The notes under the pieces were generated by a model. That model was not told where the DNA came from and did not search any database. It saw only the letters and a program-made list of their open reading frames with translations. DNA of 58,368 bases from a virus (lineage: Duplodnaviria; Caudoviricetes), in IMG/VR virus record IMGVR_UViG_3300049259_000040, positions 1 through 58,368 of that record; one strand, 5' to 3'. The position numbers and the translations under genes are program-made. Numbering within the stretch: the first letter of the stretch is position 1; each line of letters opens with the position of its first letter. Positions 35,311 through 56,048 of this stretch are shown here, in pieces.

Positions 35311-35769
35311 ATGGCCACGGGATGGGGTCGACGTATTCGAGTCGACGTGTTCACGCGCGGTGCGACTAACCAATCGGCGACTGGTGCGCCGTCGACGTTT
35401 GCCGCTTCACTGCACACGGGAAATCCCGGCGACGACGGGCAAACTGTAAACGAGGTCAGTCAAACAACCTCGGGCTACGCTCGTCAGTCGCTCACATTCT
35501 CGGCGCCAACGGCGTTTGGCTCGTTGACCGTTGACACCGCGAGTGTCGGCGCGAACGCCGCGACCATCACTTTCGGACCGAGCGCAGGCGCAAGTGCTGC
35601 GTGGGGTGTCATTACGTACGTCGGTCTGTGGACCGCCACCGGAACAGCTCTCACGGAGTCCACGTACCTAGGCCGTGCGCTCGTCAGCGTGTCTCAGAAC
35701 GTAGCCGGCGCTGGAGTCACGCTCACGATCGCAACAGGCGGGCTCACCATGGGTTGCATCAGCGCATGA
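35311..35769 (+). CDS. Tail-fibre-associated protein
   Basis: SLHTGNPG...EVS...YARQ...ITF...WG.IT.VG.W.A motif common upstream of fibres. Confidence 0.7.
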   Translation: MATGWGRRIRVDVFTRGATNQSATGAPSTFAASLHTGNPGDDGQTVNEVSQTTSGYARQSLTFSAPTAFGSLTVDTASVGANAATITFGPSAGASAAWGVITYVGLWTATGTALTESTYLGRALVSVSQNVAGAGVTLTIATGGLTMGCISA

Positions 35770-39222: not shown

Positions 39223-39642
39223 ATGGCCTCACGTCGCGACCTCACGTACGTCCTGAGCATCAGCCCGAACACGAGCACGATCGTCGGCCCTATCGACTCG
39301 AGCGAGACCGAGACGTTCACGTTCTCGCTCCGCTACGCCATCACGGCCGGCACCGTCACCGACGCGACGATAACCGTCCGTGGCAGCAACTTTGGCCGAG
39401 GGGCCAGCGCGCCGCCGACCGTCGCCATCGCATCGCTTGTTACGCCCAACCCGCAGCCTGGATTCAGTATCAACGAGGGTGGCGGTGTAATCACCTGCAA
39501 CGCGAGCACGATTGGCGCCTACGAGCAGACCTGGGTGATCACGGGAACGGCGATGCCGCGCCACCTCTGGTTCGACTGGCAGTACAACTCGGGTGGCGGG
39601 CTAGTGACAGCCGACCTCGCGATTGGCGCATGGTCTTCCTGA
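39223..39642 (+). CDS. Virion protein, tandem paralog B
   Basis: Same motifs as 38797-39213. Confidence 0.7.
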   Translation: MASRRDLTYVLSISPNTSTIVGPIDSSETETFTFSLRYAITAGTVTDATITVRGSNFGRGASAPPTVAIASLVTPNPQPGFSINEGGGVITCNASTIGAYEQTWVITGTAMPRHLWFDWQYNSGGGLVTADLAIGAWSS

Positions 39643-39645
39643 CAG

Positions 39646-40104
39646 CTAGCGCGCCGGCTGATTGACCGGGTAGGGGTTGGGCAGCATGCTCGCGTCCACC
39701 GTTCGCACCGACTCCTCCTGCACTGCCGGCAGCGGGTAGAGCGGTGAGCGCACCGACTGCGGAGCGACGGCGGGCTCGGACGCGCGCGGCTGGGTGCCTT
39801 CGGGGTGTTGCCGACGCCACGCGCGGAACTCGTCCAGCTCACGCTCCTTCTCGAGCTCTGAGCGCACCTCGGACTTGGCGACCTTTGCGGCAACCCCGGC
39901 GCCGATCGCGCCCAGTATCGCGCCGAGAATTGCGCCTTCCAGGACGTACACGCCAACCCCGGTCTCTCCGCGCTCAGCTGCGGAGATTGCGCCCGCACTA
40001 CCTAGCGCCATGCCGCCGCCAATAGCAGCCAGCGTTCCGTATCCGGTCGCGCAGCCGGAAAGCAACGTGCAGCTTACAGCGGCAGAAATGAGAGTTCTGT
40101 TCAT
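39646..40104 (-). CDS. Moron-like lipoprotein with Gly-rich hydrophobic segments
   Basis: TLLSGC lipobox; opposite strand; ACGGGGAAAAG RBS variant. Confidence 0.65.
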   Translation of the reverse strand: MNRTLISAAVSCTLLSGCATGYGTLAAIGGGMALGSAGAISAAERGETGVGVYVLEGAILGAILGAIGAGVAAKVAKSEVRSELEKERELDEFRAWRRQHPEGTQPRASEPAVAPQSVRSPLYPLPAVQEESVRTVDASMLPNPYPVNQPAR

Positions 40105-40216
40105 CGTCTTTTCCCCGTCATTAGTGACGATATGCGGCGAGTGTTGCGGTTGACCCGGTCGGCATCATGATCAGTGCATGAGCGCGCAGTAACAAGCGCT
40201 CACAGGAGTCTTTGTT

Positions 40217-40510
40217 GTGGGCAAGCCTCTCGTTTCGACGGGCGCTTTGCGTGCTTTTGTGAAGGTGTTTGGCGGGGTGCTCGCAGCGGTTTCGGTCATC
40301 GCAGGGCTGCCTGTTGCACCTTGGGTCGCGAAAATCATCGGCATCGTTGGCGGCGCGCTAACGGGCTGGGCGACCACGAGCACATGGGACACGCCGAACG
40401 CTGAACTGCCGATGGAGTGGCAGTCGTCCCCTTTGGCGCCAGCCGTGCCGACGCCATCAGACCAGCCAATGACCAGCTCGGCGGTCGGCATGGACGACGT
40501 GAACCAGTGA
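40217..40510 (+). CDS. Possible holin (two TM helices)
   Basis: Two hydrophobic helices plus hydrophilic tail at the end of the late region. Confidence 0.5.
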   Translation: MGKPLVSTGALRAFVKVFGGVLAAVSVIAGLPVAPWVAKIIGIVGGALTGWATTSTWDTPNAELPMEWQSSPLAPAVPTPSDQPMTSSAVGMDDVNQ

Positions 40511-40707
40511 CGCACGAGCAGCTCGCCGAGCTCGCGGGGATGCTCGGTGAGCGGCTCGACATGGCAACGGCTGAGCTTCTCCAGTTCGTCCACAAGCAGA
40601 CCGGCAAAGAGCTGCAGGGCGAGGCGGTCGACCAGCTGCGCAGGCGTCTCGCTTGGCACCTAGCGTTGGCGGCGGCGGCTGTCGTCGACCAGACGTCACG
40701 ACGCTAG
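40507..40707 (+). CDS. Small hypothetical protein
   Basis: GTGA overlap. Confidence 0.5.
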   Translation: MTHEQLAELAGMLGERLDMATAELLQFVHKQTGKELQGEAVDQLRRRLAWHLALAAAAVVDQTSRR

Positions 40708-40717
40708 CTATTCCGCT

Positions 40718-40866
40718 GGACTGCCGGTGTGCGAATGTGGCAGAGACGTCGTGCCCGGCCGCCGCGGGGGTTGGACGTTTCCCCGTTCCCCCTGTCGACG
40801 GCCGGGCGTTCCTGCTTTGCGAGCGCCGTACTGGCCGCTAGCAGTCCCCGAGAGCAAGCGCCGGGG
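40718..40866 (+). ncRNA. Candidate sRNA whose apical hairpin displays GUUUCCCCGUUC (antisense to the shared RBS motif)
   Basis: GGACTGC/GCAGTCC, GCCCGGCCG/CGGCCGGGC, GCGGGGG/CCCCTGT and GGACG-TTTCCC-CGTTC; G-U pairs favour the plus strand. Confidence 0.5.
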
Positions 40867-40884
40867 GAGGTAGGCGTAGCACCG

Positions 40885-41256
40885 TCAGCGCTCCGCTTCT
40901 ACGGTCTTCGGTTCGTCTTTGAGGGCGGCTTCGAGGTCGATGGCGCAGTCATCGCAGTTGTCATCGTAGGTCTTGCGCCAGTAATCCGGCAGCGCCTCGA
41001 CGCGCGCGAGCATAGCCCGCAGCTCGACGATGCGCAGCTCGGCCGCTAGTTGCGCGTTGCTGAACAGGTCTCGCTCCTCGCGCAGCCGACGCACTTCATC
41101 GTCCATAACGACCAGCATCGACCCGAGGACGGTCAGTTCCTCGTTGCGCTGCCGCTCGCGAAGCCAGTCCGCGTGCTTCATCGCGGTCTCCGGCGTCATG
41201 TGCTCTGGACGACCACTGCGTAGACCCACGCCGCCTGTCCCATCGTCGACTGTCAT
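40885..41256 (-). CDS. Coiled-coil protein of the EVRRLR / LARVEALPD family
   Basis: GGAACGGGGAC RBS before ATG 41256; 24 bp identical to 46201-46224. Confidence 0.65.
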   Translation of the reverse strand: MTVDDGTGGVGLRSGRPEHMTPETAMKHADWLRERQRNEELTVLGSMLVVMDDEVRRLREERDLFSNAQLAAELRIVELRAMLARVEALPDYWRKTYDDNCDDCAIDLEAALKDEPKTVEAER

Positions 41257-41299
41257 CTCGTCCCCCGTTCCTTGCGTTTCCATTGGTCCTTTTCCTTGC

Positions 41300-41516
41300 A
41301 CATCCGTCGCACCTTCTGCGACCGCTTCAAAAATCACTTCTTTTCACGTATGGTCTGACCAGCATGACGTATTGTGTGGGCACGTCCGACTGAACGTCTG
41401 GCGGCCAGCGTCACCGATAAAACCTCAGTGTTTCCGCTGTCTCGCCGCGTTGTGCGCAGCTTTCCGACTGTCGCTTTCAACCCGTTCTACCGTCTTTCTG
41501 TCGCATAGTTGCGACA
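41300..41516. other. Probable attP region with arm-type inverted repeats
   Basis: GTCGCA-N5-TGCGAC (41306-41322) and TGTCGCA-N4-TGCGACA (41499-41516) flank non-coding DNA at the 3' end of int. Confidence 0.5.
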
Positions 41517-42532
41517 CCGCTCGATGCCTTCAGTCGCGGCAGCGCGTTCGCGGCTTCGTGCAGGTGGTCGCTTCGCTTCGAAACGTTGGCGTAAACAGAT
41601 TCGAGCATCTTCACGCTGTTGCCCATCATTTTGGCCAGCGTGAGGATCGGCACTCCAGCGCGTGCGAGTGCTGTGGCGTAGCTTCCGCGCAGGTCGTTGA
41701 CGCTGATGTCGTCGTCGAGCCCAGCGCGCTTTGCTGCCCGCTTCAACGTCTTGTCGATGTTCGGCTTGTGCTTCGGCGCGAACCCGCACCAGCCCGAAGC
41801 TCGTAGCGGCAGAAGTTCGGAGAACAGCTCGTCCGGGATCGGCACCCAGCGCTTCGAGCCTTTGGTCTTCGTGCCGTTCACGAAGACGTAGCGGCCTTCC
41901 CAATCCACCTCGGTGATCTTCCACGGCTCGCTCGCTCGCAAGCCGAGCTGCAGATACGCCTGGAAGTACAGCTTCAGGTGAGTCGGGATGGCGAGCAGCA
42001 GCGTGCGCTGGTCGTCAGCCTCGATCACACGTTGCGGCTTGTGCGTGATTTCGCCGAGGTCGGGGAACTTCGGCGGCGTCATTCCCACTGCCTTGAAAGC
42101 TTGCCCGAGGCAGTTCAGCTCTCGGTGCGTCGTCCATGCCGTCTTGGTCTTGCGGCTCTCGATGCAGAACGCTCGCACCGCGTCTTCGTCGATGTCGGCG
42201 AGCTGCTTGTCGGCGCCGAAGTGAACGACGAGTGTGGCGCTGCGATACATGATGTGGTCGTGCGTTGACTGCGACTTGCCGGCTAGCTCGGCCGCCGCGG
42301 AGAGCGCTTTGAGCGCTTGTTTGAGTGTTTTGCTTGGGCGCGCTGCAGCTTCGCCTCGAGTCGCGAAGCTACGTTCGATATCTCGCGCGATTCCTTCTGC
42401 GGTCTGTCGGGATTTTGCTGTGCCGTCGTCTCTGACGCCTGTCGACTTGGCGACTCGCCGCCGTTGGGTGCCATCCCAGAAGTGAACCCAGCATTGCCAG
42501 ACATCTGATTTTTGCCGTCTGAAGAGCTCCAT
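41477..42532 (-). CDS. int: Tyrosine recombinase / integrase
   Basis: LGLRASE (R), GTKT (K), NDLRGSYAT, MMGNS, VY (Y); N-terminal arm-binding domain. Confidence 0.9.
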   Translation of the reverse strand: MELFRRQKSDVWQCWVHFWDGTQRRRVAKSTGVRDDGTAKSRQTAEGIARDIERSFATRGEAAARPSKTLKQALKALSAAAELAGKSQSTHDHIMYRSATLVVHFGADKQLADIDEDAVRAFCIESRKTKTAWTTHRELNCLGQAFKAVGMTPPKFPDLGEITHKPQRVIEADDQRTLLLAIPTHLKLYFQAYLQLGLRASEPWKITEVDWEGRYVFVNGTKTKGSKRWVPIPDELFSELLPLRASGWCGFAPKHKPNIDKTLKRAAKRAGLDDDISVNDLRGSYATALARAGVPILTLAKMMGNSVKMLESVYANVSKRSDHLHEAANALPRLKASSGVATMRQKDGRTG

Positions 42533-42714
42533 GACTGACCCCTTTCAAGACGACGGACGTACTCCATCAGCCGGCGCTCCGAAACTCTCCAGCGATTGCC
42601 GACCAGCTGTGCGCCGCCCAGTGCGCGCATGACCGCGTATGCGTGGTCTCGACCGCACCCGAGCGCGCGCTGGACAGCGGCAGCGCCCACGAGGCGGGGT
42701 AGGTCACTAGCCAT
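42283..42714 (-). CDS. xis: Excisionase-like HTH protein; frame continues about 250 nt into int
   Basis: ALGCGRDHAYAVM...GNRWRVSERRLMEY; directly upstream of int. Confidence 0.7.
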   Translation of the reverse strand: MASDLPRLVGAAAVQRALGCGRDHAYAVMRALGGAQLVGNRWRVSERRLMEYVRRLERGQSWSSSDGKNQMSGNAGFTSGMAPNGGESPSRQASETTAQQNPDRPQKESREISNVASRLEAKLQRAQAKHSNKRSKRSPRRPS

Positions 42715-43187
42715 CACCACTCACCGCTAGCACCACCACCGCCGAAGTCTCCGCCGCCGCCAGAGAACGAATCCCCGGTGTCCGGCGTCGACGTGTCGGT
42801 GCTTAAAAACGCGTCAACGACAGCCTCTGCGACGTCCACAACAGCCTGCGCGAAGCTGCTGTCGTCGTAGCTCGTGCTCGACGTCTCGCCCTCGTAGCGT
42901 CGGTACGCGGGATCCTCGTTCATCGGCACGCCATACGCTGGCACCGGCGCCTCGACACGCTGCGCTTTCGACACAGGAGACAGAGCCGCGATCGCTGCCG
43001 CGTTGACCGTATTGCGATTCCGGTGCGTGTAATCGCAATACGCTTGCGGAAGGTCGCGCAGGTTCACGACCCAGGTCGATCCGACTTGCCATGCTGCGCT
43101 CGCGACTGTCGCCGTGAACTTCGGCTCTTTGCCGATGGTTGGGTGGTAGTAGACCTTGTCTCCGACCTTGACGTCTTGCTTATTCAT
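42714..43187 (-). CDS. Hypothetical protein, SH3/KOW-like N-terminus and Gly-rich FSGGGGDFGGGGASGEW tail
   Basis: VKVGDKVYY start; characteristic C-terminal tail. Confidence 0.65.
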   Translation of the reverse strand: MNKQDVKVGDKVYYHPTIGKEPKFTATVASAAWQVGSTWVVNLRDLPQAYCDYTHRNRNTVNAAAIAALSPVSKAQRVEAPVPAYGVPMNEDPAYRRYEGETSSTSYDDSSFAQAVVDVAEAVVDAFLSTDTSTPDTGDSFSGGGGDFGGGGASGEW

Positions 43188-43428
43188 CGATGCCTTCTCC
43201 CGTTGCTAGCTGTTGCGTGAACTGCTCTTCCATGAACTGCTCGTACTGACGCAGCTCGGTCTCCGACACCTCGATCTCGTGCTCTTGCAGCGCTGCCATG
43301 TACTCGCTCATCACAGCCGAGAGCGGCACAGGCTTCGTCTCCACCACTGCCGGCTTGCGGTACTGCTGGCGACCAGCGAAGCACACGTGAGAGCCGTGCA
43401 TCTCTTGGCGGCATTTGAAGCACTTCAT
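43180..43428 (-). CDS. Small zinc-finger protein
   Basis: CFKC...HVC. Confidence 0.6.
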   Translation of the reverse strand: MKCFKCRQEMHGSHVCFAGRQQYRKPAVVETKPVPLSAVMSEYMAALQEHEIEVSETELRQYEQFMEEQFTQQLATGEGIDE

Positions 43429-43775
43429 GGCTTGTCCTTCAACGTCGTCTCGATCATGACCGCCGCGGCTCTCAGCGCGGACGCCGTGGCCTGCGCGATG
43501 CGCATCTCAGCGGCTGGTCGTACGTCGACCAGCCAACCATCCGCCATCTCGCGGAGCGTCGCAGGCATCTCGTCCACACGCGCGAGCTTGGTTTTGAGTT
43601 CTGTAACGCATCGATCGTCGAACTCCAGCCACGCAGCGAATGCTTGGGCCTTGCCAACGTCGACCGCAGCATCCACCGCACCGCGCAATCGGCGCACTTC
43701 GCACGCCAGCGGGTCAATGCTCGACGCCTCGGCTAGCGCGCTCTCTACTTCGTCTCGTGATGGGATGTACGTCAT
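43425..43775 (-). CDS. MTYIPSRDEV-family protein, copy 1
   Basis: First 31 aa nearly identical to 45888-46379. Confidence 0.7.
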   Translation of the reverse strand: MTYIPSRDEVESALAEASSIDPLACEVRRLRGAVDAAVDVGKAQAFAAWLEFDDRCVTELKTKLARVDEMPATLREMADGWLVDVRPAAEMRIAQATASALRAAAVMIETTLKDKP

Positions 43776-43780
43776 GGCTG
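43690..43780. repeat. 91-bp direct repeat, copy 1 (copy 2 at 46294-46384; 3 mismatches)
   Basis: Direct comparison. Confidence 0.9.
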
Positions 43781-44071
43781 GTCTTCTCCGAGTTCTTGGC
43801 GCAACACGGCTAGCTCTAGGCGAGCTTTCATGCTCGCCTCGGCGAAGCGCTTGAGCGCTGACTCTATCGCTAGCAATTCGTCTTGCGTTGGCGGCTCAGA
43901 CTTCCAACGCATCTCTATGGACGAGATGCGCGGCACGGTCAGTCCAGTTGAACGCGCAAGCCACCCCATAGTGCACTCACGTCCGGCAGCGACGCGCAGT
44001 GCACGAAGGTGCCCTGCGATGATGGCTCGTTGCATCGGCAACGTCAGACTCGGCGCTTCCTCGAGCGTCAT
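43772..44071 (-). CDS. XRE-type HTH protein
   Basis: LRALR...TMGWLARSTGLTVPRISSIE. Confidence 0.7.
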   Translation of the reverse strand: MTLEEAPSLTLPMQRAIIAGHLRALRVAAGRECTMGWLARSTGLTVPRISSIEMRWKSEPPTQDELLAIESALKRFAEASMKARLELAVLRQELGEDQP

Positions 44072-44237
44072 GGCGTTTCTCCGTGCTCACTCATCGGACA
44101 ATCCCCATGCGGGATTCGACTCGTTCGGGTCATAGATCACCTCACCAGTTGATTGTGCGTACACAGTTCCGTCGCTCGTCCTGACCAGCCGTGTGTCGTG
44201 CTCGGCGTCGTACAGCGCCTGCAGCTGGGCTGCGATG

Positions 44238-45299
44238 TCAGGCGCTTTTCATCTGCGCTGGGTGCGTCTCCTCGAAGACTTCGAGCAGTGCTTTGCGGGC
44301 GTGCTTGATTGCTTCCTGGCACGCGTACCGCACAAACGATGCGTCACTCTTGTTTGGGTCTAGGCTGCCCATCCGCGCTTCACGGTCGTCGATGAGCATG
44401 TGCAGCACGTCGGCCGGCGCTTCCGCGATTGGCGTTCCCGACCATCGACCACCGCCGTACTCGAAGCTCTTTGGAATCTTCGAGTAGTCGGGCTGACGAC
44501 GCTTGGGCTCTTCCGGAGGCGCGACGTCCTTTGGCTGCGTTTGCGGCGCAGCTGCTGCCGCGGGCTGTGCCGATGGCTCGGTCGACGCCATCTCTGCGCC
44601 GCTCTCGTGGAAGTCTCTGACCGTCTTGGCGAAGTGGTCCAGCTCGTTGACGCTGACGTAGTCCTGCTTGATCGAGTGGATGCGCGACTTGGTCACGTTG
44701 TACGCGTGGTCTTCGAGCCGCAGCTCGCCGTACACGGTGAAGATGTACTCCATGCCCGCGCGCTGGATCGGCTTCATGCCCTTGCGCACCGGGACCTGGA
44801 CCTTCCTTCCGCCCGGCTTGGTCTGCTCCTCGAGCACGTACTCTTGATGCGACTGCAGCGTCACCACGATGTGTGAGCTGCACTGCGTGATGGCGTTCGT
44901 CAGCTTGTTCTGCAGCGGCGTCACCGCGCCCCAGCCATTGGTGAAGGCGTTGTTGCCCTTGAGCTTGTCGACGGTCTCCAGCGCGCCGCCTTCTCCAGCC
45001 CATGCGTGCGAAAGCGAGTCGATGACGATCACGTCGTACTTCTCGCGCTCCGCCAGTGCGATAGCGTCCAGGTAGTTCTGGATCGAGAAGTTGTCGAGGT
45101 TGAGCGTGTCGAAGTGCAGGTCGTTGAGTCCGGCGTACAGCGATGCGCTGCTGTTCTCCGTGTCGACGACTGCGATGCGCTGGCCGAGCGCCCGCGCTAT
45201 CTCCAGCGCCCATAAAGTCTTCCCGGAACCCGACGGACCGGCTAGGGCGATGCGCGCTTTGGTCTTGGTGCGCGTCGCCGGCTTGAATGCGAAGCCCAT
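44238..45299 (-). CDS. AAA ATPase, Sak4/AAA_24-like recombination protein
   Basis: GPSGSGKT Walker A, VDTE, VIVIDSLSHAW.G.GG. Confidence 0.85.
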   Translation of the reverse strand: MGFAFKPATRTKTKARIALAGPSGSGKTLWALEIARALGQRIAVVDTENSSASLYAGLNDLHFDTLNLDNFSIQNYLDAIALAEREKYDVIVIDSLSHAWAGEGGALETVDKLKGNNAFTNGWGAVTPLQNKLTNAITQCSSHIVVTLQSHQEYVLEEQTKPGGRKVQVPVRKGMKPIQRAGMEYIFTVYGELRLEDHAYNVTKSRIHSIKQDYVSVNELDHFAKTVRDFHESGAEMASTEPSAQPAAAAAPQTQPKDVAPPEEPKRRQPDYSKIPKSFEYGGGRWSGTPIAEAPADVLHMLIDDREARMGSLDPNKSDASFVRYACQEAIKHARKALLEVFEETHPAQMKSA

Positions 45300-45469
45300 C
45301 AGCGTGCCTCCTTGATGAGCTTCGCCTCGACGCGCGCGAGCTTCTTCTCTGCATCGCTAATGCAGTTGATTGTCGGCGTCTCAAGATGCTCAGTCCTCGT
45401 CCAGGCTGAAGGGCGTCGAGTCTTCCACCACGCCTTCGCGGCACGCAGTACGCGTTCCTCGTTCGTCAT
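45299..45469 (-). CDS. 56-aa hypothetical protein containing KLARVEA (not in the ORF track)
   Basis: Coupled to both neighbours. Confidence 0.55.
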   Translation of the reverse strand: MTNEERVLRAAKAWWKTRRPSAWTRTEHLETPTINCISDAEKKLARVEAKLIKEAR

Positions 45470-45891
45470 ATGGCCTCAGCCTTGTCAGCGACCTCGTTGG
45501 CCGCTGTGTTCGGCCGACGGATGCGCGGCTTGCCCTTGTCGCTGCGCTCGACACGCGGCTTGCGTACCTTCAACTTCGCTAGTTGCGCTTCGTCGAGCAT
45601 ACCGAGCGCGCGCTCCTCCGCAGCGAGCGCTGCCTTTTTGGCGGTCACCTCGGCGCGCAGACGCTTCTGGCAATCGAAAGCGAGCTCGCGGGCGAACTGC
45701 AAGCCCTCGGCGTCGAGGTCCTCGAACACGATCTCTAGGTTGTGGCGTTTCTCATCTGTCATCATGTCGTCTCCTTCATCGGCGCGGCACCAACGTGTGC
45801 CGTTCCAAAAGTCGTCACCGTCATCGCGGCCGTACATCGTCTCGTTCGCGTCAGCTGCCCAGTCGACGCTCAGGTGTTGGTCCGGCGTCAT
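45466..45891 (-). CDS. Coiled-coil protein with RSDKGKPR basic DNA-binding motif
   Basis: RKPRVERSDKGKPR. Confidence 0.6.
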   Translation of the reverse strand: MTPDQHLSVDWAADANETMYGRDDGDDFWNGTRWCRADEGDDMMTDEKRHNLEIVFEDLDAEGLQFARELAFDCQKRLRAEVTAKKAALAAEERALGMLDEAQLAKLKVRKPRVERSDKGKPRIRRPNTAANEVADKAEAI

Positions 45892-46379
45892 GGCTCGTCT
45901 TTCAGCGCTGGGCGTACGTATCGGCCGGCCGCGAGCGAGTTCGCACGTTCTTCCTCAAGCTCATCACGCAGCCGGCGCACTTCGGACTCAGCGTCCAGCG
46001 CGCGGACTTGGTACTTATCCGCCTCGTCGTGAGCGCGTTCCAGGCGTCTCGCGGCATCGTTCAGCGCGTCATTTAGTGCCCGGAGAGCCTCCTTGTGCTC
46101 GTCACGGGCTTTGATATCGCATGCGTCCCTCAACGCGGCTTCGAGTTGGAGCGCAGCGCCGGTCCAATCGTCGCCGATGATTCGCGCCTTCCATTTGTCA
46201 GGCAGCGCCTCGACGCGCGCGAGCTTGGTTTGCAGCTGATAGAGCTGCTCGTGCGTTTCTCCTGCGCGCTCTTCGCCGTCAAGCTGACGAAGCCGGCGCA
46301 CTTCGCACGCTAGCGGGTCAATGCTCGACGCCTTGGCAAGCGCGCTCTCTACTTCGTCTCGTGATGGGATGTACGTCAT
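45888..46379 (-). CDS. MTYIPSRDEV-family coiled-coil protein, copy 2
   Basis: Shares segments with 43425-43775 and 40885-41256. Confidence 0.7.
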   Translation of the reverse strand: MTYIPSRDEVESALAKASSIDPLACEVRRLRQLDGEERAGETHEQLYQLQTKLARVEALPDKWKARIIGDDWTGAALQLEAALRDACDIKARDEHKEALRALNDALNDAARRLERAHDEADKYQVRALDAESEVRRLRDELEEERANSLAAGRYVRPALKDEP

Positions 46380-46384
46380 GGCTG
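46294..46384. repeat. 91-bp direct repeat, copy 2
   Basis: Direct comparison with 43690-43780. Confidence 0.9.
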
Positions 46385-48640
46385 CACCTCGAAGTCTTCG
46401 CCGCAAATCTTGTTGAGTCGTTCGGGCGCGTAGCAGCTGGGATGCTCAAGATTGAGCGCCTTCAGTTGCTTGACGGTGCGCGTGGTCAGTCCGGCTTCGA
46501 ATGCTTGCGCGCATGGGAAGTCCCAGTGCCAGCACGACGCGCGCAAGCACTCGTCGCAAACCGTCACCTGGACGTCATCGGTGTACGGCTTGCTCATGGG
46601 TGCGCTCCTCCAAGTCCGCGGTGCATCACTCCGCACTCAGCGCAGTACGCCGTCGCGCGTTCCCAGTCGGCGCCGTCGATCACGACTTGCTGCGTGCGTA
46701 TCGTCTTCTTGTCGAGCTGGTGGAACAGCGAGTCGTCGATGTCGAGCAGCAGGCTGACCTTGATGCGCCAGCGCGGACGCTCGCACTTGCACGTGCCGCG
46801 GCTGGTGGCGGCAAGGCCGATCGGCTTCTTGCGCGCGCTCATGACTTTACCTCGCACTCACCGCTCAACAGCCGCCGGGCCGCGTTCGCTGCTTTGGCGC
46901 TTGTGCACGCTGCTAGGACCCGAATAGGTCGACTGTGCCTGCCGACGTATCGGTGCTCGAGCACGAAGAACTTCCCGCGCGTCTCAGGCTTCACGAAGCC
47001 ATCACGGTCGTAAAATGGCCCGCGATCAACGACGAGACGCGGCGGTTCCAGGTCGCTTTGGATGGTCATGGCTTCGGCTCCCAGCGCAGCAGCCACACCG
47101 CGACGATCTTCTGATCGCTATCGATGAGATCGATGTCGTCGTTTTCGAGGATGTCGATCGCCTGTGCTTCGCGCGTCTTGCGCCAGTCGGCGCCGGACGA
47201 TGTCGCGACATAGCTCTTGTCGCCCTGACGCGACTCGCGCCATTGACGCTCGCGGTCTGTAGAGGCGGCCAACTCGGCCTCCAGCTCCTTGATGCGTTGA
47301 AGCGACTCCGTGGCCTCAGCGCTGACCTCGTCGTACATCCTGGCGAGTTCTTCGAGGCGCTTCCCTTGCAACTCGATGATGTTCGCTTGGCGGGCGACCA
47401 GCGACCTCTCGGTGGCCAGTTCGGCTCTCCACTGCTCGATCGCGCGGGCCTTCTCGTCCAGCTCCGCCAGCGCCAGCTCGCGCGCTGCGTTCAGTCGTTT
47501 GCCTAATGTTCTTGTGCCCTCCAAGTCGGCACGTAGTTCGTCGCGCTCGCGCGTCAGCTCGGCGTTGTCCGCTCTGCAGGCTGACAGCGCGTCGTCGGTC
47601 TGCTGCAATGCCTGTTCTGCCACGAGCTTGCCAGCACGCGCGATGCTCACCTCGACGTGAGCCTCGTCGCGCTCGCGTTGCAGCCGCTCGATCGTGCCGT
47701 TCAGATCCGCGATGACGTTTCCCTGCAAGACGCACGTTTGCCGGTACGGGTCGTCGCTGAGCCCTGCGTGCGCTCGATTCATTGCCATCTGCCTTGCGTC
47801 GTCTTCGGTCGTCATGCTGCGCTCTCCTCTGCGTCTCGCTTGCCGAGCTCGCGGCTAATCTCGTCCTTCAGCTGTCGCAATTCTCGGCGCCGAATCCTGA
47901 CCGCCTCCCTGCGCTCCCTGATGCGTTGGAGCTCGTGCGCGATCTGAGTCTCCTCAAGCTTCGCGTACTGCCGCGCGCGCTCGATGGGGTCGATGATGAC
48001 GAAGTCGCGTCCGTTCGCGTCTGTGAGCACTATCTGTGCGCTCGTGATGTCTGCAAATCCCATGTTGTTTCCCCGTTCGTCGTGAGTTGTCAGGTCAGAT
48101 GACCGCGCGCCGTGCTTGGCGCATCGGCTCGTCGGCGCCGATGAAGTCCATCGTCAGGTCGGCCAGCGCCATGTCGCGCTCGCGCTCTGTGATGACGCGC
48201 TCTTCGTACATCTGCTGCAGTTCCTCGCGCTTCGCTTTGTACTCTTCGTAGTCCATGTCTCTCTCTCCTCACTCCGCCCAGCACGCGCTGATGCGTGGCA
48301 GGCCGTTGTGCTCCAATGCCTCGTCAAACCCTTCGCGCACGAAGGGCAGGGCTCTTGCTGTCGTCTCCTCGTTGCCAGGGATGAGCCAGATGAGATCGGC
48401 GTCGGTGACCACGTCGTAGCTGTCGTCTGCGAGCTCGCACGCGGCCCTCCATTGCTCGTAGGCGCGTTCGCCTAGCTCACGGGCCTTGCGCTGTTCGGCG
48501 AGCGTTAGAGGCGGTAGGATGCGAACGTGGGAAGAATGACTATGGAGAGGACCCGATGATTCGTGCACCGGGTCCTCTCCACTTCCCCGTCCATCACCTC
48601 TCGGTGCTCCTGTCGCGATGACGGCTGCTTGCGTTGTCAT
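46376..48640 (-). other. Leftward early genes: 46376-46597, 46594-46843, 46839-47069, 47066-47815 (long coiled coil), 47812-48063, 48269-48640
   Basis: ATGA coupling; GAACGGGGAAAC before 48063. Confidence 0.65.
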
Positions 48641-49449
48641 CGCTGAATCTCCTGCGCCCTCGCACTCGGTCGCTTTACCTTAGCCTCAGGTTTTAGGCGG
48701 CGCTGATATTCCATCGCGCACGTTCGGCACACGCGCGAGCCGTGGCGGCTTGGCCGAAAGTAAACGTTCTCTGGCGTGTACTCATGCCCGCGAGCGCAGT
48801 GCGTCTTCTTGGGTTTAGGCCAAGCGTTCTTCCGCCGAGCCGACTCTCGGCTTTTCGTCCGTAGGCACTCAGCACATCTGCGCCTGAGCTTGCCGCGGTC
48901 AGCGCGGAAAATTAGGTTGGATCCAAAGAACGGATGACCTTTCACGCAGTGCGTCCGCAGTGCCGGTCCGCTGTTCCTCGCGTTTTGCTGATGCGTGACA
49001 GCGCGAATGCACCTGAGCGCGACACAGTTCCTATTGCGGCACTCGTGGTCGAGTTCAAGCCCGGCAGGCACGGAACCGTTGGCCAGTTCCCACGCGACGT
49101 GGTGGGCGAACCGTAGGACGTTGTGAGGCTTCCCATTCTTCGAAAAACGGACGTTGCTGTATCCGACGGTGACGACTCCGTACCCAGCTTTGTGCTTTCT
49201 CTTTGATGTCCAAAACACACAGCCGTTCGGCTGTGGTGACGAGTAGCGATCGATTACTTTTCGTAGGTCGTCGTCGGAACGAAGTCTGACGCCAGGCTGA
49301 GTTCCGAACTTCCCAGGGCCACGTAGTGAGGACCAGTGCTCGCCCGGAGCAAGCAATCTCTTCTCGCGATTGAGGACCGAAACGTCGTCGTAAGGCATCT
49401 TCGGAGACCCCTTGTAGCTCGAACCCAACTGGGTTGCGACCCAATACAT
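48637..49449 (-). CDS. HNH homing-endonuclease-like protein with two C-terminal Zn-binding repeats
   Basis: GCVFW...GYG...AHHVAW...LDHECRNRNCV...VT..QN; THC.KGH/THC.RGH...R.C..C twice. Confidence 0.85.
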   Translation of the reverse strand: MYWVATQLGSSYKGSPKMPYDDVSVLNREKRLLAPGEHWSSLRGPGKFGTQPGVRLRSDDDLRKVIDRYSSPQPNGCVFWTSKRKHKAGYGVVTVGYSNVRFSKNGKPHNVLRFAHHVAWELANGSVPAGLELDHECRNRNCVALRCIRAVTHQQNARNSGPALRTHCVKGHPFFGSNLIFRADRGKLRRRCAECLRTKSRESARRKNAWPKPKKTHCARGHEYTPENVYFRPSRHGSRVCRTCAMEYQRRLKPEAKVKRPSARAQEIQR

Positions 49450-49775
49450 CTGTCACGGACGCATGGAGAGCGCAACCCATCTGTCAGGATTTATTCTGCC
49501 GAACTGGTTCGTTCGGAGCCCAGACGGGTCCTAAGGCAACAAAACCGCCACGTGTGGCTCATAGCCACTACTCTAGGCGGCACGTGTGGTTGCGTTACAC
49601 ACACGTTGCAAAAGCGTCGATCTCATACCTGTGGTCGTAAGCAAGGATGTCATCGTTTGCTCAGAGCTGAGGCAAAGAGGAGCTAATGCGTCATCTCTCC
49701 CTCAATGACGCTGAAACTCTGTGATGTGAAATCCGCTACGCCCCCGCGCGCGGTCTTCTAGTCTACGTGGCTAGG

Positions 49776-50216
49776 TTACCCACGATTTGCCGTGAAAGGG
49801 TGCCTCGTGAGCTCACGCACGGCTTGCGTGAGTGCGGCTACCTGACCTTTCAGTTCCTTCACTTCCTTGTCCCTCTCTTGTTCCCGGCGCTCCTTCCTCG
49901 CCGCATCCAAACTGAATACGTTGTGTATCAGGTCACCAACATCGACCGGCTCTTCGAGCTCCGAGAAGAAAAATTTCGGATCGATGTTTAAATGATCAAT
50001 CACGCCTTGAATGATCGAGTCGCCGATTCCCCGGCGTCCAGAGCTTTCGACGTTGGTCCATTTGCTGATGAAGCTCTCGTGGCACCCAATGGCGGTAGCT
50101 ATCTCGGACTGGCTCATCTTTTTCCGCCCGCGCTGCTCGTCTCCCCTTTGTAGGTAGATAAGTAGCTGGTTGAACCGGGATGCCGCCCTGGTGATTCGGG
50201 GTGGTGGAGGTGCCAT
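49776..50216 (-). CDS. CI-like repressor (XRE HTH)
   Basis: MSQSEIATAIGCHESFISKW; divergent from the Cro-like gene. Confidence 0.75.
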   Translation of the reverse strand: MAPPPPRITRAASRFNQLLIYLQRGDEQRGRKKMSQSEIATAIGCHESFISKWTNVESSGRRGIGDSIIQGVIDHLNIDPKFFFSELEEPVDVGDLIHNVFSLDAARKERREQERDKEVKELKGQVAALTQAVRELTRHPFTANRG

Positions 50217-50253
50217 ATGTCTCAGCTTCCCCCGAGACGACGTGCCAGTGGGC

Positions 50254-50281
50254 TTGACTTGAGGAACCCATTTGTCATGCT
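50254..50281 (+). promoter_or_regulatory. PR-like promoter TTGACT-N16-CATGCT
   Basis: Between cI and cro. Confidence 0.55.
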
Positions 50282-50314
50282 CTCGCTGTGCAGAGCCCAA
50301 CAACAACGGACGCC

Positions 50315-50542
50315 ATGGCGGAAGACCCGCACACCAGGCTTCGCGAACTGCGGATTGCAAACTCGCTGACGCAGGAGAAGGCGGCCGAGCGATTCGGCTG
50401 TGCCGCCTCCTACATCTCTAAGATCGAGAACAGGGAGCGCGTCCCCGGTCGACGTATCGCTAAGAGAATCGAGGTCGTCACAACGAAGCTCGGCGATCCG
50501 ATTCTCGTAGGTGACTGGGACGACGAAGATTTCGAGGACTGA
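50315..50542 (+). CDS. Cro-like XRE HTH regulator
   Basis: LRELR...LTQEKAAERFGCAASYISKIENRERVP. Confidence 0.85.
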   Translation: MAEDPHTRLRELRIANSLTQEKAAERFGCAASYISKIENRERVPGRRIAKRIEVVTTKLGDPILVGDWDDEDFED

Positions 50543-50888
50543 CCCATGCGCGTACTGTGCATCTCGCATGGACCACTGTTGTCGCCGACGCGCATAGCCG
50601 GGGCAAGCCCACGCATAGCGCAATCGCGTTGCAATACGTTGGCTTGGTCACTCTCGTACACAGCGAGCAATACGAAGATTGCGCACGTTGGAACGGCGCC
50701 CGGTAATCCCGGCCACCGTTCGAGCAGGCGCAACAGCATGTCCCCCCGTGCTCGCGCCCGTTCGCTGAGGTCGCCGCCGCTGTCTTAGCTCGCGTTACGA
50801 CGCGCTGAGCTTGGCGTCTGTCAGCGGCGGCGCCTCGGAGTAGTGTCCGCATTTGAGCATACAACTGTAATCATTGGAGAATACGCTG

Positions 50889-51083
50889 ATGGCAAAGCCA
50901 AAAGGGAGCACGGACGCAGCGCTCGCGTACGACGCGAAGAGGCAAGCGCAGAAGCGCGCTGCGTCGCGGTCGACTCGCGGGTGGACGCAGGAGCAGGAGA
51001 CGCCTGGCGAGCACGAGCGGCGCAAGCACGCCGAGCTTGAGGCGTACGGACAGCTGAGCATCTTCAACAGGACAGAGGTGTAG
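50889..51083 (+). CDS. Small basic hypothetical protein (cII position)
   Basis: GGAG RBS; between cro and the initiator. Confidence 0.55.
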   Translation: MAKPKGSTDAALAYDAKRQAQKRAASRSTRGWTQEQETPGEHERRKHAELEAYGQLSIFNRTEV

Positions 51084-51093
51084 CGGTGGCCAA

Positions 51094-51133
51094 GAAACGA
51101 AAAACCCCGCCAAGGGTGAAGACCTCGGCAGGG
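51094..51133 (-). terminator. Rho-independent terminator (minus strand)
   Basis: CCCTGCCGAGG-loop-CCTTGGCGGGG-TTTTTCGTTT. Confidence 0.7.
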
Positions 51134-51202
51134 CAAACAAACAATCGACCTATCCAAAAGCTAACACGCTCGACGCTGAGCGCAAGCGGCGAGGTTGGTT
51201 GA

Positions 51203-52135
51203 ATGGATTTCTCGAACGAGAGCTACGTGCGTCTTTACACGCGCGACACGACTACGTGGAAGCGACTCGAGTGGGACGGTCAGAACGTGCTCATGCAGAT
51301 CCTGCGAAAGCTGGATAGGGCGGGTGTTCTCGACCTGGAAGGCATGGACCCGATAGCTGCAGTTGTCATGCACACGGGTGGCCCGACGAAGACCATCGAA
51401 GTCGCATTGGGGCGTCTCGTGTCACTCGGCGTCGTTGTCATAGATGACGACCGACTCATCTTCCCAAAGTTCATCGAAGCGCAAGAAGCGAACAAGACCG
51501 ACAAGCAACGGCAGAAGGAATGCCGCGAGCGCCGCCGTTCTCTTCGAAACCATGACGTCGACAAGCTAGAAGAGTCACAAAACGTGACTAAATGTCACGC
51601 GAGTCACGCGCTCGGTCACACGGTCACAAACGCTGTCACACGCGTCACGCCGGATGTCACTCTTAACTCTGCAGGGCAGTGCAACGCCGAGCGTGTCTCT
51701 AACACTCCGTCACAAATCGTGACTCCCCCCGAAGGGCGGGCACGATTGAAGACCCCCAGCTTTGAAAGGCCGCCAGTCGGGGAGGCGCCTCCAGACCTGC
51801 CACCTCCCGAGCCTCTCCTCGTAGCTCGCATCCGCAAGGAGTACAGCGAGCGCTACCTGCAGAAGTACGCAGCTGCTGCGCCGTCCGACAACTGGGCGGA
51901 GCGGGAGCTTGAGAAGTGGTGCAACCAGTCGTCCGGCCCTCGCGGCTGCACTCCAGCCGAACTCGTCGTCAAGCTGCTTGATGGGTTGTTCGCGACGAAG
52001 AACGCGAACGTGATTCGTCTCAAGCACAAGCTTGGATGCGTCGTGAAGAACCCGCTCGAGTTCCTCGATGGCGTCGAGCCCGACGTCAGGGTCATGCCGT
52101 ACCACCTACGCGACCTCGATGCGGGGATGCGATGA
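51203..52135 (+). CDS. Replication initiator (replisome organiser)
   Basis: N-terminal wHTH-like domain, KQRQKECRERRR, internal VT repeats, upstream of dnaB. Confidence 0.75.
   Translation: MDFSNESYVRLYTRDTTTWKRLEWDGQNVLMQILRKLDRAGVLDLEGMDPIAAVVMHTGGPTKTIEVALGRLVSLGVVVIDDDRLIFPKFIEAQEANKTDKQRQKECRERRRSLRNHDVDKLEESQNVTKCHASHALGHTVTNAVTRVTPDVTLNSAGQCNAERVSNTPSQIVTPPEGRARLKTPSFERPPVGEAPPDLPPPEPLLVARIRKEYSERYLQKYAAAAPSDNWAERELEKWCNQSSGPRGCTPAELVVKLLDGLFATKNANVIRLKHKLGCVVKNPLEFLDGVEPDVRVMPYHLRDLDAGMR
51574..51723 (+). repeat. Replication-origin iterons (GTCAC)
   Basis: Eight direct GTCAC in 51574-51660 spaced mostly 8-12 bp; palindromes GTCACAAA(A/T)CGTGAC at 51574 and 51709. Confidence 0.7.
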
Positions 52136-53439
52136 AGAACGCCCAACCGTTCCCGAGTAACCTCCTGCTCGAACGCAAGGTCATCGAGGGACTGGTCAAC
52201 CTCGAGGCTGACTTCGCCGAAGCGCTGGAGCTCAGCGCTGACTGCTTCTACGACCGCACGCATCAGCGTGTGTTTGAGATCTGCAAAGCGCTGCAGTCGC
52301 AGAAGCGACCTGCAGACCAAGTGCTCGTGCTCGAGCAGCTCGGCGACGACCCGGATGCACGCCCCTTCGTAGCCTCTCTCGGCTTCCCACCGAGTCAGAA
52401 CCTGGGCGCTTGGTGCGAGCAGCTGCGAGCGTTGCGAACGTTGCGCAAGACCATCGAAGCCGGATTGCGACTTGCAGCTCTCGGCTTCGAGTCCGCCGAC
52501 GACCCGAGCGCCTACCTCGACCAAGCGTCGAAGATGTTCGCCGAGGCGCTGAACACTCGGTCGTGCAACGCCCAGATTCAGCCGATGGACTCGATCATGG
52601 GCGAGGTCATGGAGGACCTGCGCTCGAAAGAGGCCAACGCGGCTACGAGGATTCTCTCCACCGGCTTCTTTCAGCTCGACCATGCACTGGGTGGTCTGGA
52701 GCCTGGAAGGGTCTACGTGGTCGCTGGGCGCACCGGGATGGGCAAGTCCGCCCTCGCCAACCAGATAGCCATGCTTGTCTCATCCATGGGACATCGTGTG
52801 CTCGCTTTCAACCTAGAGATGACGCCGAAAGAGGTTGGTCGGCGTATGGTCTCGGTCGCTGCCGGCGTCGACGGTCGCGCTCTGAAGCGAGGCAAGCTCA
52901 GCGAACTCGAAGCCAAGCGAGCCACGCGTTCTGCTGAGAAGATTGCAGGCTTTCCGCTCGAGTATCCGCGCACGACGGACATCACGATCGAGGAGTTGCG
53001 GCGCACAGCGCGCTCGCGCATGTCGGACGGTTTGCGCTTGGTCGTTGTCGACTACCTGCAGCAAGTGAAGACGGCTGAGCATCTAGAGAGCCGCGAGCAA
53101 TCGGTCGCAGCGGTCAGCCGTGGGCTCAAGCAGATGGCGCTGGAGCTGGAGATTCCGGTCATAGCCGTCGCGCAGCTGAATCGCGACTCGGAGAAGCGCG
53201 CGTCGCAGAAGCCAGGTCTTGCTGACCTGCGCGAGTCGGGAGCGATCGAGAACGATGCCGACGTCGTCTGCCTTCTCTATAGGGACGAGTATTACAACCA
53301 GCAGACGAAGGAGCCTGGAACTTGCGACGTCATCGTTGCGAAGAATCGCGACGGTGAGACTGGCGTTAGCAAGATGCTGTTTGAGAAGCAGTTCACGCGC
53401 TTCAAGGACCGAATCACCTCGGAGGCGAGCCATGGATGA
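52132..53439 (+). CDS. dnaB: Replicative DNA helicase
   Basis: AGRTGMGKS, FNLEM, VVDYLQ, AQLNR, DLRESGAIENDAD, AKNRDG. Confidence 0.95.
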   Translation: MKNAQPFPSNLLLERKVIEGLVNLEADFAEALELSADCFYDRTHQRVFEICKALQSQKRPADQVLVLEQLGDDPDARPFVASLGFPPSQNLGAWCEQLRALRTLRKTIEAGLRLAALGFESADDPSAYLDQASKMFAEALNTRSCNAQIQPMDSIMGEVMEDLRSKEANAATRILSTGFFQLDHALGGLEPGRVYVVAGRTGMGKSALANQIAMLVSSMGHRVLAFNLEMTPKEVGRRMVSVAAGVDGRALKRGKLSELEAKRATRSAEKIAGFPLEYPRTTDITIEELRRTARSRMSDGLRLVVVDYLQQVKTAEHLESREQSVAAVSRGLKQMALELEIPVIAVAQLNRDSEKRASQKPGLADLRESGAIENDADVVCLLYRDEYYNQQTKEPGTCDVIVAKNRDGETGVSKMLFEKQFTRFKDRITSEASHG

Positions 53440-53887
53440 CTCCGAGTTCGATGCCATCAAGTCGCGAATCGAAGCTGCGGCGCTCGTCCTTCGCAAAAGA
53501 GGCTACGGGCATTTCGATCCGGGTGAGCTCGGCTCTCCTGTAGAGCTCGCTCCGGACGTTATCGAACGCCTGGAGAATAGGCTCGACGATGACGCGCGCG
53601 GATTCTGCGAGCGCATGATCGAGCCGCTCAAGATGAAGGAGCCGCGTCTTCGGTGCGAGCAGTGCCGCGTTGCAGACCTCGGTCTGTGCGACGTGTGCAG
53701 CGCCGCCTTTCATGATGCGCGGAAAGTGCCGATCGAGACGACGCTGCCGCTCGATCAGGAGCTGCTGTCGCAGAACGCCGAGCATCAAATGCGGGTCGAG
53801 GCCAGCGTCAAATATCTGGAGATACTGCGGGAGCACCAGGCACAGGAACAGCGTGAGCTGCGAGCTGCGCTCAAGAACAGAAAGTAA
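53432..53887 (+). CDS. Zinc-finger protein
   Basis: CEQC...LCDVC. Confidence 0.6.
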   Translation: MDDSEFDAIKSRIEAAALVLRKRGYGHFDPGELGSPVELAPDVIERLENRLDDDARGFCERMIEPLKMKEPRLRCEQCRVADLGLCDVCSAAFHDARKVPIETTLPLDQELLSQNAEHQMRVEASVKYLEILREHQAQEQRELRAALKNRK

Positions 53888-53898
53888 CGGGGAAAGAC

Positions 53899-54153
53899 AT
53901 GTCAGACCAAACGACGATGATGGAGCGGCTCATTGAAGCCGCGAAGGATAGGGCAGCGGACCTCGCTGCACTGGTGCTGTTCGAACTGGTAGGGCTGAAC
54001 GACCGCGTGCTGCGCAGGTACGGTCGGCTGACGATGACGCGCATCACGCGAGAGATGCAGCGGATCTCTCAGCAGCAGCAGTCGATGGCGTATGGCTGCC
54101 AGGACCCGGACTGCCCAGAGTGCAGGCAGCAGCGCCAGCTCGAGGTGAACTGA
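53899..54153 (+). CDS. Small protein with CxDPDCxxC
   Basis: AACGGGGAAAG RBS variant. Confidence 0.6.
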   Translation: MSDQTTMMERLIEAAKDRAADLAALVLFELVGLNDRVLRRYGRLTMTRITREMQRISQQQQSMAYGCQDPDCPECRQQRQLEVN

Positions 54154-54944: not shown

Positions 54945-55030
54945 CACAATCGACCTAACACCAACCAATAGCTATTGACTCAATGCCATGTACGACATCA
55001 AGATAACAAATCACGAACGGGGAAACGTTC

Positions 55031-55222: not shown

Positions 55223-55427
55223 CGCTGCCGTCAGTCGATCTCGTGTGCGCAGTCTCCATGTTCATGCTCGGCATGGCCGTAGCGATGAAGTTCATCGAGT
55301 CGCTGCCGTGAAGCGCGTGCTGCGCTTGACGCGCCGCAACGTGGCCTTCTGGGGTTTGCTTGCGCTGCTCAGCGTGGCTGCTGGGTACTGCGCAACGCTG
55401 CATCTAACGATCTGGGCGGTGTCATGA
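55219..55427 (+). CDS. Small membrane protein
   Basis: C-terminal TM helix; ATGA coupling. Confidence 0.55.
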
Positions 55428-56045: not shown

Positions 56046-56048
56046 TGC

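Follow-up and report, generated by a model that had tools for sequence, protein, structure and literature searches.

The genome of soil phage IMGVR_UViG_3300049259_000040 carries a 12-nt tag, GAACGGGGAAAC, directly before the start codons of seven small genes, and an eighth exact copy, without a start codon, at the apex of a very stable intergenic hairpin. The feature is real and non-random; the reading that we favor is a terminator-type hairpin bearing a maintained inverted copy of the start-associated tag. The window analyzed here covers the entire virus record (58,368 bp, 62.6% G+C), which has a 127-bp terminal repeat and is the complete genome of a temperate phage from soil. It encodes a tyrosine integrase (41477–42532, minus strand), a DnaB-like helicase and a major head protein, the last by a distant match, and the large genes run rightward in a long block from ≈12 to 39.6 kb. 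No relatives of the phage were detected when the cultured-phage collection was searched by DNA and with two proteins.

The whole genome contained eight exact copies of the tag and none with a single mismatch, against a mean of 0.11 copies and a maximum of 1 in 100 dinucleotide shuffles; with up to three mismatches allowed, there were 69 matches against 42 expected. An ATG lies 1–5 nt downstream in 7/8 exact copies, opening small, orphan ORFs, found on both strands and 20, 58, 63, 77, 83, 98 and 118 aa long. By motif scan, the plus-strand copies were located at 55015–55026 (4 nt from the ATG that opens the 63-aa ORF), 55674–55685 (3 nt from that of the 118-aa ORF), 56912–56923 (2 nt, a hydrophobic 20-aa ORF), 57373–57384 (5 nt, the 77-aa ORF) and 58237–58248 (1 nt, the 98-aa ORF, which spans the terminal repeat), and the gene-linked minus-strand copies at 48067–48078 (3 nt, the 83-aa ORF) and 4819–4830 (3 nt, the 58-aa ORF). 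At the eighth copy, 40777–40788 on the minus strand, none of the start codons ATG, GTG and TTG occurs within 12 nt. The 8-nt core of the tag, CGGGGAAA, occurs 10 times and is followed by an ATG in 9/10 cases, the hairpin copy being the sole exception, because both degenerate copies of the tag also precede ATGs: TAACGGGGAAAG (53885–53896, plus strand, two mismatches) is separated by 2 nt from the ATG that opens an 84-aa ORF, and TGACGGGGAAAA (40109–40120, minus strand, three mismatches) by 4 nt from that of a 152-aa gene at 39646–40104. An earlier, sequence-only reading of this DNA had claimed that the only copy of the tag without a start codon is the one in the intergenic hairpin, and the counts agree with it (one of eight exact copies and one of ten core copies).

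All gene-linked tags lie on the coding strand, every copy points in the direction of local transcription, and most are preceded by the previous stop codon at 10–25 nt, an intra-operon placement. No copies were found at gene starts in the structural block (12–39.6 kb), and other genes of the phage use ordinary Shine–Dalgarno (SD) sequences (GGAGG, GAGGTGAT). The 110 nt upstream of the tag copies share no block that could be recognized by eye, a TTGACT-like element being present only at 55015. Pfam scans of five of the seven tagged ORFs (55031, 55689, 57390, 47812–48063 and 4639–4815) and of the ORF behind a degenerate tag (53899–54153) gave no family matches. Among the scanned tagged ORFs and ORF 53899–54153 there was one PHROG match, a weak one to a family without assigned function. 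The sequence-only reading took the tagged set to be early genes, but the tagged genes occupy both strands, in three or more transcription units, and include the lipoprotein-like neighbor of the hairpin, a distribution unlike that of a simple early regulon.

Folding of the plus strand of the multi-stem region at 40718–40866 reproduced exactly the stems and the UUUCCC hexaloop that had been named from the sequence. The region consists of a long-range closing stem (40719–40733/40827–40846), a small 3' hairpin (40847–40866) and a core hairpin (40752–40808, plus strand) with an outer stem of 10 bp, including a U·G pair, a middle stem of 8 bp and an apical stem of 5 bp (GGACG/CGUUC) topped by the hexaloop. 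The eighth tag is centered on the apex, where it contributes the loop together with the 5' half of the apical stem and the initial base of the 3' half. On the plus strand, 40777–40788 reads as the anti-tag GTTTCCCCGTTC (the complement of the apex 12-mer is also given as GUUUCCCCGUUC). The hexaloop (40778–40783, plus strand) is complementary to the GGGAAA of the tag and is a candidate seed, with a predicted unpaired probability of 0.98–1.0 and an opening cost of 0.02 kcal/mol. At -41.4 kcal/mol, the segment 40751–40810 has the lowest minimum free energy (MFE) of all 60-nt plus-strand windows in the genome, which average -17.6 kcal/mol with a standard deviation of 4.9. Compared with shuffles, the 149-nt region as a whole is modestly stable, with z = -2.15 on the plus strand and -1.90 on the minus strand. 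Rfam gave 0 matches at the gathering score over the window, the best on the hairpin being a microRNA model with E = 1.7, and no tRNA was found at the hairpin region.

The sequence-only reading also held that the G·U wobbles work only on the plus strand and so identify the transcribed strand. Three pairs (G57·U70, G49·U76 and U35·G91 in the numbering of the 40718–40866 fold) do form on the plus strand only, but the minus strand acquires a G·U of its own at plus-strand C45/A81, and its core hairpin has an MFE of -42.0 kcal/mol against -41.4 for the plus strand. With such near-equal folding on both strands, the wobbles fail to identify which strand is transcribed. In a minus-strand RNA, positions 2–12 of the tag would be partly exposed, with unpaired probabilities of 0.26–1.0. 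Two further roles for this DNA were considered and rejected. A 49-aa ORF beneath the hairpin on the minus strand (40708–40857) had a coding score of -0.115. As for an attP site, the gaps flanking the integrase contain no tRNA-like piece, and the hairpin arms are 31 nt apart, a spacing that exceeds that of core-type integrase sites and suggests that an attP role is unlikely.

The hairpin follows a short rightward cassette. Its first gene (40217–40510, plus strand) encodes a 97-aa protein with an AGGAG SD and, by our own reading, two hydrophobic segments; its product has a homologue, P0009, with 76% identity over 100% coverage. The second, a 66-aa gene (40507–40707, plus strand), has a GTG start that overlaps the preceding stop (GTGA), and the coding score changes frame at ≈40500, as predicted for a two-gene cassette. 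A competing minus-strand ORF (40171–40659) was excluded by the P0009 homology, the GTGA overlap and the switch in coding-score frame. Leftward of the cassette lies the 152-aa gene (39646–40104, minus strand), which is lipoprotein-like, with an LSGC signal by our own reading. On the other side of the hairpin, a conserved gene (40885–41199, minus strand), called at 104 aa in the protein collection and with seven metagenomic protein homologues, ends the leftward integrase operon. The hairpin thus lies 45 nt past the 40707 stop on the plus strand and 77 nt past the 40885 stop on the minus strand, which places it between converging units. Its position after both converging stops argues that it is primarily a terminator-type 3'-end structure.

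The tails are less typical of a terminator. On the plus strand, the tail GTTCCTGCTTTGCG (40809–40822) is moderately U-rich, weaker than a canonical U-tract; the 12-nt stretch GTTCCTGCTTTG contains 6 T. The minus-strand tail beyond the hairpin is U-poor. A terminator scan of 39500–42000 requiring at least 5 T in 8 made no call. The tails of other hairpins in this phage differ among themselves, that at 7646–7705 being T-rich and that at 23091–23150 having no T-rich tail. Overall, the hairpin is probably a transcript 3'-end or terminator element. A promoter scan of the same interval, 39500–42000, found no sigma-70-like sites, although the consensus may not suit the host. The free-standing sRNA gene of the sequence-only reading therefore loses its footing: with no promoter-like site, a candidate RNA would have to derive from the 40217–40707 mRNA, as its 3' end, or from late read-through.

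Relatives of the phage were sought in several collections. IMG/VR gave no matches when queried with a 150-aa ORF, the integrase and P0009, and the 17-mer ACGAACGGGGAAACAAC had seven single matches there, which is chance level. The major capsid protein had no match in the genome contig collection. Distant homologues of the 104-aa neighbor were found in two viral and ten metagenome loci. The tag never occurred more than once per locus in these 12 loci, and k-mer counts in two of them (L016 and L017) did not reveal an alternative RBS tag. When the regions downstream of the 104-aa homologues were folded, a comparable long hairpin was present only in L016/L019, a distant relative, where it directly follows the homologous gene; its tip is unrelated to any RBS tag, and it is uninformative on covariation between loop and tag. 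Closer relatives, ≈90% alike and spanning the hairpin, were present in soil DNA of a second study (X2 record 1, X3 record 10 and X5 record 25). Contigs of four soil DNA runs were compared over 39500–58368, and none of the 40 differences listed, out of 1,972 in the soil relatives, falls in 40718–40866.

The claim that the tip is the perfect complement of the tag on seven RBSs held at 12/12 positions, and models of the pairing suggest that the loop seed would be open to its targets. Opening all 12 apex nucleotides is predicted to cost 6.4 kcal/mol and the 12-bp duplex to yield -20.1 kcal/mol. With target opening costs of 1.2–5.3 kcal/mol, loop-nucleated pairing, computed for 6/7 targets as the seventh crosses the window end, comes to a predicted net -8.5 to -12.5 kcal/mol. 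The tag at 55015 can itself fold into a mini-hairpin, in which a GAACG/CGUUC stem closes a GGGAAA hexaloop that matches the hairpin tip exactly as a kissing partner. However, when the 71-nt hairpin RNA was cofolded with 65–77-nt targets as two molecules, ddG ranged from -2.0 to -10.0 for eight tagged sites and from -1.9 to -8.8 for 10 untagged RBSs, so that this check of the pairing fails to separate the two groups. The loop-restricted model favors tagged targets, unlike the full cofold, and the overlap in the latter implies that specificity would rest on the kinetics of loop access rather than on equilibrium. By these models, pairing between tip and tag is physically feasible.

If the tip is a regulator, it might act as follows. 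A very strong terminator-type hairpin would end the rightward cassette (40217–40707), facing the leftward integrase operon, and late read-through transcription would probably end at the hairpin too. Plus-strand RNAs ending there would carry a stable 3' hairpin with its UUUCCC loop unpaired. The loop could nucleate pairing with the GGGAAA of the tag, and the pairing could then invade the weak 5-bp apical stem until all 12 nt are engaged. The resulting duplex would cover the SD-like GGGG located 7–11 nt before the ATG, and ribosome entry would be blocked on the tagged small genes. The motif and its positions, the hairpin, its open loop and the pairing energies are established by the analysis; we infer plus-strand transcription across the hairpin, accumulation of the 3' fragment and its action in trans. 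The eighth copy is non-random, given eight exact copies where 0.11 are expected, and this speaks for an antisense role. Nevertheless, we hold only tentatively that the hairpin tip is a trans-acting antisense regulator of the tag, and put its chances somewhat below even.

A counterpart of this arrangement exists in mycobacteriophages. Passages of Pope et al. (2011; PMC3203893) describe the SAS of the cluster K phages, present in 11–19 copies, 3–7 bp before the starts, mostly ATG, of non-structural genes, and report that K1 phages have a lone reverse SAS away from gene starts. An analogous start motif is described in the Microbacterium cluster EF phages (PMC7302621), and the role of SAS is still called unknown in passages of PMC11373665 and PMC12699233. 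We examined the reverse copy. In Anaya, which has 16 forward SAS, the single reverse copy (59870–59882, one mismatch) lies in the 385-nt gap between gp96 and gp97, and the transcribed plus strand reads GCGCGG-CCTCCTATC-CCGCGC, so that the anti-SAS is in a hairpin loop. The 161-nt fold of this region has z = -3.99, and the gp96–gp97-type gap is conserved in 182 phage records. An inverted SAS with one or two mismatches, in the loop of a GCGCGG/CCGCGC stem, was present in all eight K1 phages examined (Anaya, Tiri, Apocalypse, Yunkel11, Peanam, Validus, SgtBeansprout and Adephagia); it is kept in these diverged phages though the flanks vary. In the analogue that is tractable in M. smegmatis, the loop reads GGCCTCCTATCCC. 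In Adephagia the same element lies in the gap between genes 92 and 93, where late transcription starts according to RNA-seq (PMC11373665).

Among 14 cluster K phages sampled, seven had an inverted SAS with one or two mismatches. In Amgine, Amohnition, Krueger, Shandong1 and Unicorn the loop is CU-rich and partly complementary to SAS, the Keshu loop is unrelated to SAS, and KiSi has no hairpin. With KiSi excluded, a consensus fold of the 13 remaining sequences had 67 pairs, compensatory changes being seen in 17, and the predicted duplex between loop and SAS had energies of -15.1 to -22.0 in 12/13 phages, compared with -8.6 to -11.8 for shuffled SAS; the exception was Keshu, at -9.5. There was no Rfam match for the cluster K leader RNA. 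The conserved loop, the compensatory pairs and the late start in the gap together imply that the K1 anti-SAS is a selected loop on a late-strand RNA, which thus follows the same logic as the antisense proposal. No anti-SAS or non-coding RNA is described for cluster K in the titles, abstracts and passages covered, and we claim that the hairpin-loop position of the reverse SAS is undescribed in these, although the sites may appear in Fig. S3 of PMC3203893 and in Supplementary Table 3 of PMC12699233.

The expectation that the loop would be conserved wherever the motif occurs did not survive this comparison. Amgine, Krueger, Shandong1, Keshu and KiSi have 17–18 forward SAS but lack a reverse one in the leader, and AnnaSerena, a Microbacterium phage, has 10 forward and 0 reverse copies. 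A two-mismatch reverse match elsewhere in Shandong1 and a one-mismatch 10-mer reverse match in AnnaSerena are both within control levels. The inverted partner is non-obligatory in other SAS systems, which counts against generality. The geometry of the antisense reading has support in the K1 phages, where a near-perfect inverted SAS likewise occupies a hairpin loop of the late-transcribed strand; the wobble argument for the plus strand fails, no promoter-like site was found in 39500–42000, and specificity is favored by the loop-restricted model but not by the full cofold.

Several other explanations account for parts of these data. RNA from the integrase operon would carry the sense strand of the tag, and the hairpin might be a decoy or processing site that presents the tag to whatever factor (protein, nuclease or RNA) recognizes the RBS tags; the factor would be titrated, or decay of the int mRNA would be coupled to it in a form of retroregulation, for which lambda sib is a precedent. 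Consistent with this, the tag copy is in sense orientation to the nearest upstream operon, whose stop is 77 nt away, the hairpin folds as well on the minus strand (-42.0 against -41.4 kcal/mol), and the GGGAAA region is largely unpaired in the minus-strand RNA. Conservation of the tag beyond that of an SD also suggests a dedicated factor, an idea raised for SAS in passages of Pope et al. (2011). However, no candidate RNA-binding protein was found, the minus-strand tail past the hairpin is U-poor, and the K1 inverted copy lies in a region where the reported transcription is solely rightward (PMC11373665), so that the RNA there holds the antisense form and not the sense form. We regard a decoy as unlikely. 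The hairpin might instead be an ordinary bidirectional terminator with a relic at its tip, functionless at present, which would be either what remains of the RBS of a leftward gene since lost or a scar left by recombination at tag sequences. Its site between the convergent units and its extreme stability would suffice for a terminator, the GTC directly after the tag is one base from GTG and, by our own reading, opens a 22-codon frame, and the long hairpin of the distant relative L016/L019 has a tip unrelated to RBS tags. A relic would be expected to decay, yet the copy is identical at 12/12 positions in a genome with no one-mismatch copies, the tag is exactly centered on the apex with flanks shaped for pairing, and the analogous inverted SAS is conserved in eight diverged K1 phages despite changes in the flanks. 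On balance, a relic has a small share of the probability.

A DNA operator, with the 12-mer bound by a phage protein and the eighth site stopping transcription that leaves the int operon leftward toward the end of the rightward genes, would fit an asymmetric, exact 12-mer that is oriented with transcription and sits in short intergenic gaps, but the spacing of 1–5 nt to the ATG in all seven gene-linked copies and the GGGG at the SD position point to translation, and a site in duplex DNA needs no hairpin apex; we consider this explanation improbable. The complementarity and the accessible loop would also fit an independent sRNA gene with its own promoter within 40708–40752. With only 45 nt between the upstream stop and the hairpin, and no promoter-like site found, such a gene is very improbable.

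The preferred reading, a terminator-type hairpin with a maintained inverted tag, bears on a wider question. Since 2011, SAS-type motifs have been recorded across hundreds of actinobacteriophage genomes, and passages of the published descriptions leave their function unexplained (PMC3203893, PMC12699233, PMC7302621 and PMC11373665). The same kind of tag is now seen in a phage without detectable cultured relatives, where the sole copy that is not at an RBS is displayed, inverted, in the loop of the strongest plus-strand hairpin. Together, the soil phage and the K1 reverse SAS give a concrete tag/anti-tag hypothesis that is testable in Adephagia or Anaya in M. smegmatis. In its general form, SAS tags would be half of a two-part translational switch, in which an inverted copy on a transcript of another stage silences the whole tagged set; the carrier of the anti-tag would be the late-operon leader in K1 and the 3' terminator hairpin in the soil phage, and the arrangement would have originated independently in unrelated phages. 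This generalization is speculative and probably does not hold, but a two-part switch, if true, would supply a mechanism for SAS, unexplained since 2011. If the antisense role is wrong, the eighth copy still marks how tags spread.

Several known elements resemble parts of the soil phage hairpin. Like intrinsic terminators between convergent operons, it has a GC-rich perfect stem and a U-containing plus-strand tail; it differs in a stem of 23 pairs in three tiers, a weak U-tract and a loop region that is a copy of a 12-nt repeated motif. The 3' hairpins of S. aureus RNAIII, and RsaE, have UCCC-type loops that pair with the G-rich RBSs of several mRNAs, and a C-rich regulatory loop may belong to the terminator hairpin itself. 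They share with the soil phage an unpaired, pyrimidine-rich loop on a stable hairpin, but the soil phage loop matches a dedicated tag at 12/12 positions rather than a generic SD, and its separate transcript is only hypothetical. The c4 RNA of P1 and P7 and the CI RNA of P4 are phage antisense RNAs, processed from a longer transcript, that act on RBSs. In both cases a short phage RNA element is complementary to ribosome-binding regions; c4 and CI act on one or two neighboring targets in cis-linked immunity circuits, whereas here there would be 7–9 dispersed targets. Small RNAs derived from 3' UTRs share the terminator of the mRNA and usually have their seed upstream of it, whereas the candidate seed of the soil phage is in the terminator loop.

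The closest likeness is to SAS. Both are asymmetric motifs of 12–13 nt in near-exact copies (about 10–19 for SAS), placed a few nucleotides before starts with a preference for ATG; both are oriented with transcription, belong to small non-structural genes and are conserved beyond the needs of an SD; and both the soil phage and K1 have one reverse copy without a gene start. The tag GAACGGGGAAAC is unrelated in sequence to the cluster K and EF motifs GGGATAGGAGCCC and GGGAAAGGACCCC, its core being a weak GGGG where SAS has AGGAG, and the extended SAS, with 17-bp inverted repeats or a promoter upstream of a subset, was not seen by eye at the soil phage tags. The inverted copies also differ in position, that of the soil phage being in a 3' terminator hairpin and that of K1 in the 5' leader of the late operon. 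The stoperators of cluster A phages are likewise asymmetric 13-mers in many copies oriented with transcription, as described in passages of PMC3203893 and PMC4351075, and Pope et al. (2011; PMC3203893) contrast SAS with them. Stoperators act on DNA, as duplex sites bound by the repressor, and are free of start codons, whereas the tag is locked 1–5 nt from an ATG. As the tag fits the positional definition of SAS without sequence homology, it is an independent analogue of SAS rather than a homologue.

Several sites carry the tag or tag-like sequences, the tag being the 12-mer that serves as ribosome-binding site (RBS) for small ORFs of the phage. At 55015–55030 (+), the tag copy is followed by GTTC, and the mRNA can form a GAACG-GGGAAA-CGUUC mini-hairpin there, the loop of which is the exact complement of the 40778–40783 loop of the intergenic hairpin. 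It is also the only tag with a long non-coding stretch upstream, including a TTGACT-like element (54975–54980). At 41259–41270 (−), GAACGGGGGACG stands 3 nt ahead of an in-frame ATG (≈41256). This ATG is a possible alternative start of the hairpin-adjoining gene, which would then have a tag-like RBS and encode 123 aa, versus 104 aa in the protein collection. A 152-aa gene at 39646–40104 (−), which has a lipoprotein-like signal (LSGC) and resembles a moron or a gene for lysogenic conversion, uses a degenerate tag copy, TGACGGGGAAAA, as its RBS. This leftward gene is wedged among rightward genes, close to the end of the structural block.

Within that block, the 152-aa protein encoded at 35311–35769 (+) gave one of very few family matches, to Pfam PF23140 (podophage GP4 fibre I protein gp80; E = 3e-15); in PHROG, most of the phage's large structural proteins had no match. 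The terminators of the phage are heterogeneous, since the strong gene-end hairpin at 23091–23150 (+), directly after the major head gene, lacks a T-tail, whereas that at 7646–7705 (+) has a T-rich one. Soil sequencing runs of a separate study yielded contigs that matched the phage at 80–99%, yet whole segments were swapped or skipped (42714–43181, 43429–44098 and 57347–57909, among others); at 42714–43181, 466 nt were exchanged for 348 other letters. These replacements indicate that the close relatives form a mosaic population.

Among cluster K mycobacteriophages, which carry start-associated sequences (SAS) a few nt upstream of start codons, we found a conserved, mostly unannotated element of ≈280 nt in Anaya (59682–60066; L048:683–1067), Adephagia (58447–58878; L062:1048–1479) and further phages of the cluster (loci L049–L061). 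It is flanked by a terminator upstream and by the late operon's first gene downstream. The element contains a TAGACT that is invariant and forms two hairpins; compensatory changes affect 17 of the 67 pairs of the fold. A search of Rfam with the element returned zero matches. In K1 phages, the near-perfect inverted SAS forms the loop of hairpin 2; in phages of the K5/K6 type, this loop is rich in C and U. The element could be a regulatory RNA of the late leader, perhaps antitermination-like, or an anti-SAS. In the 43.5-kb IMG/VR record of a distant relative (L017:1767–2025), 7–8 copies of TGTCGCCAGTT(G), direct and inverted, are packed inside 260 bp, and an AAACGGGGAAAC stands in their midst immediately ahead of an ATG; this repeat cluster resembles operators or iterons.
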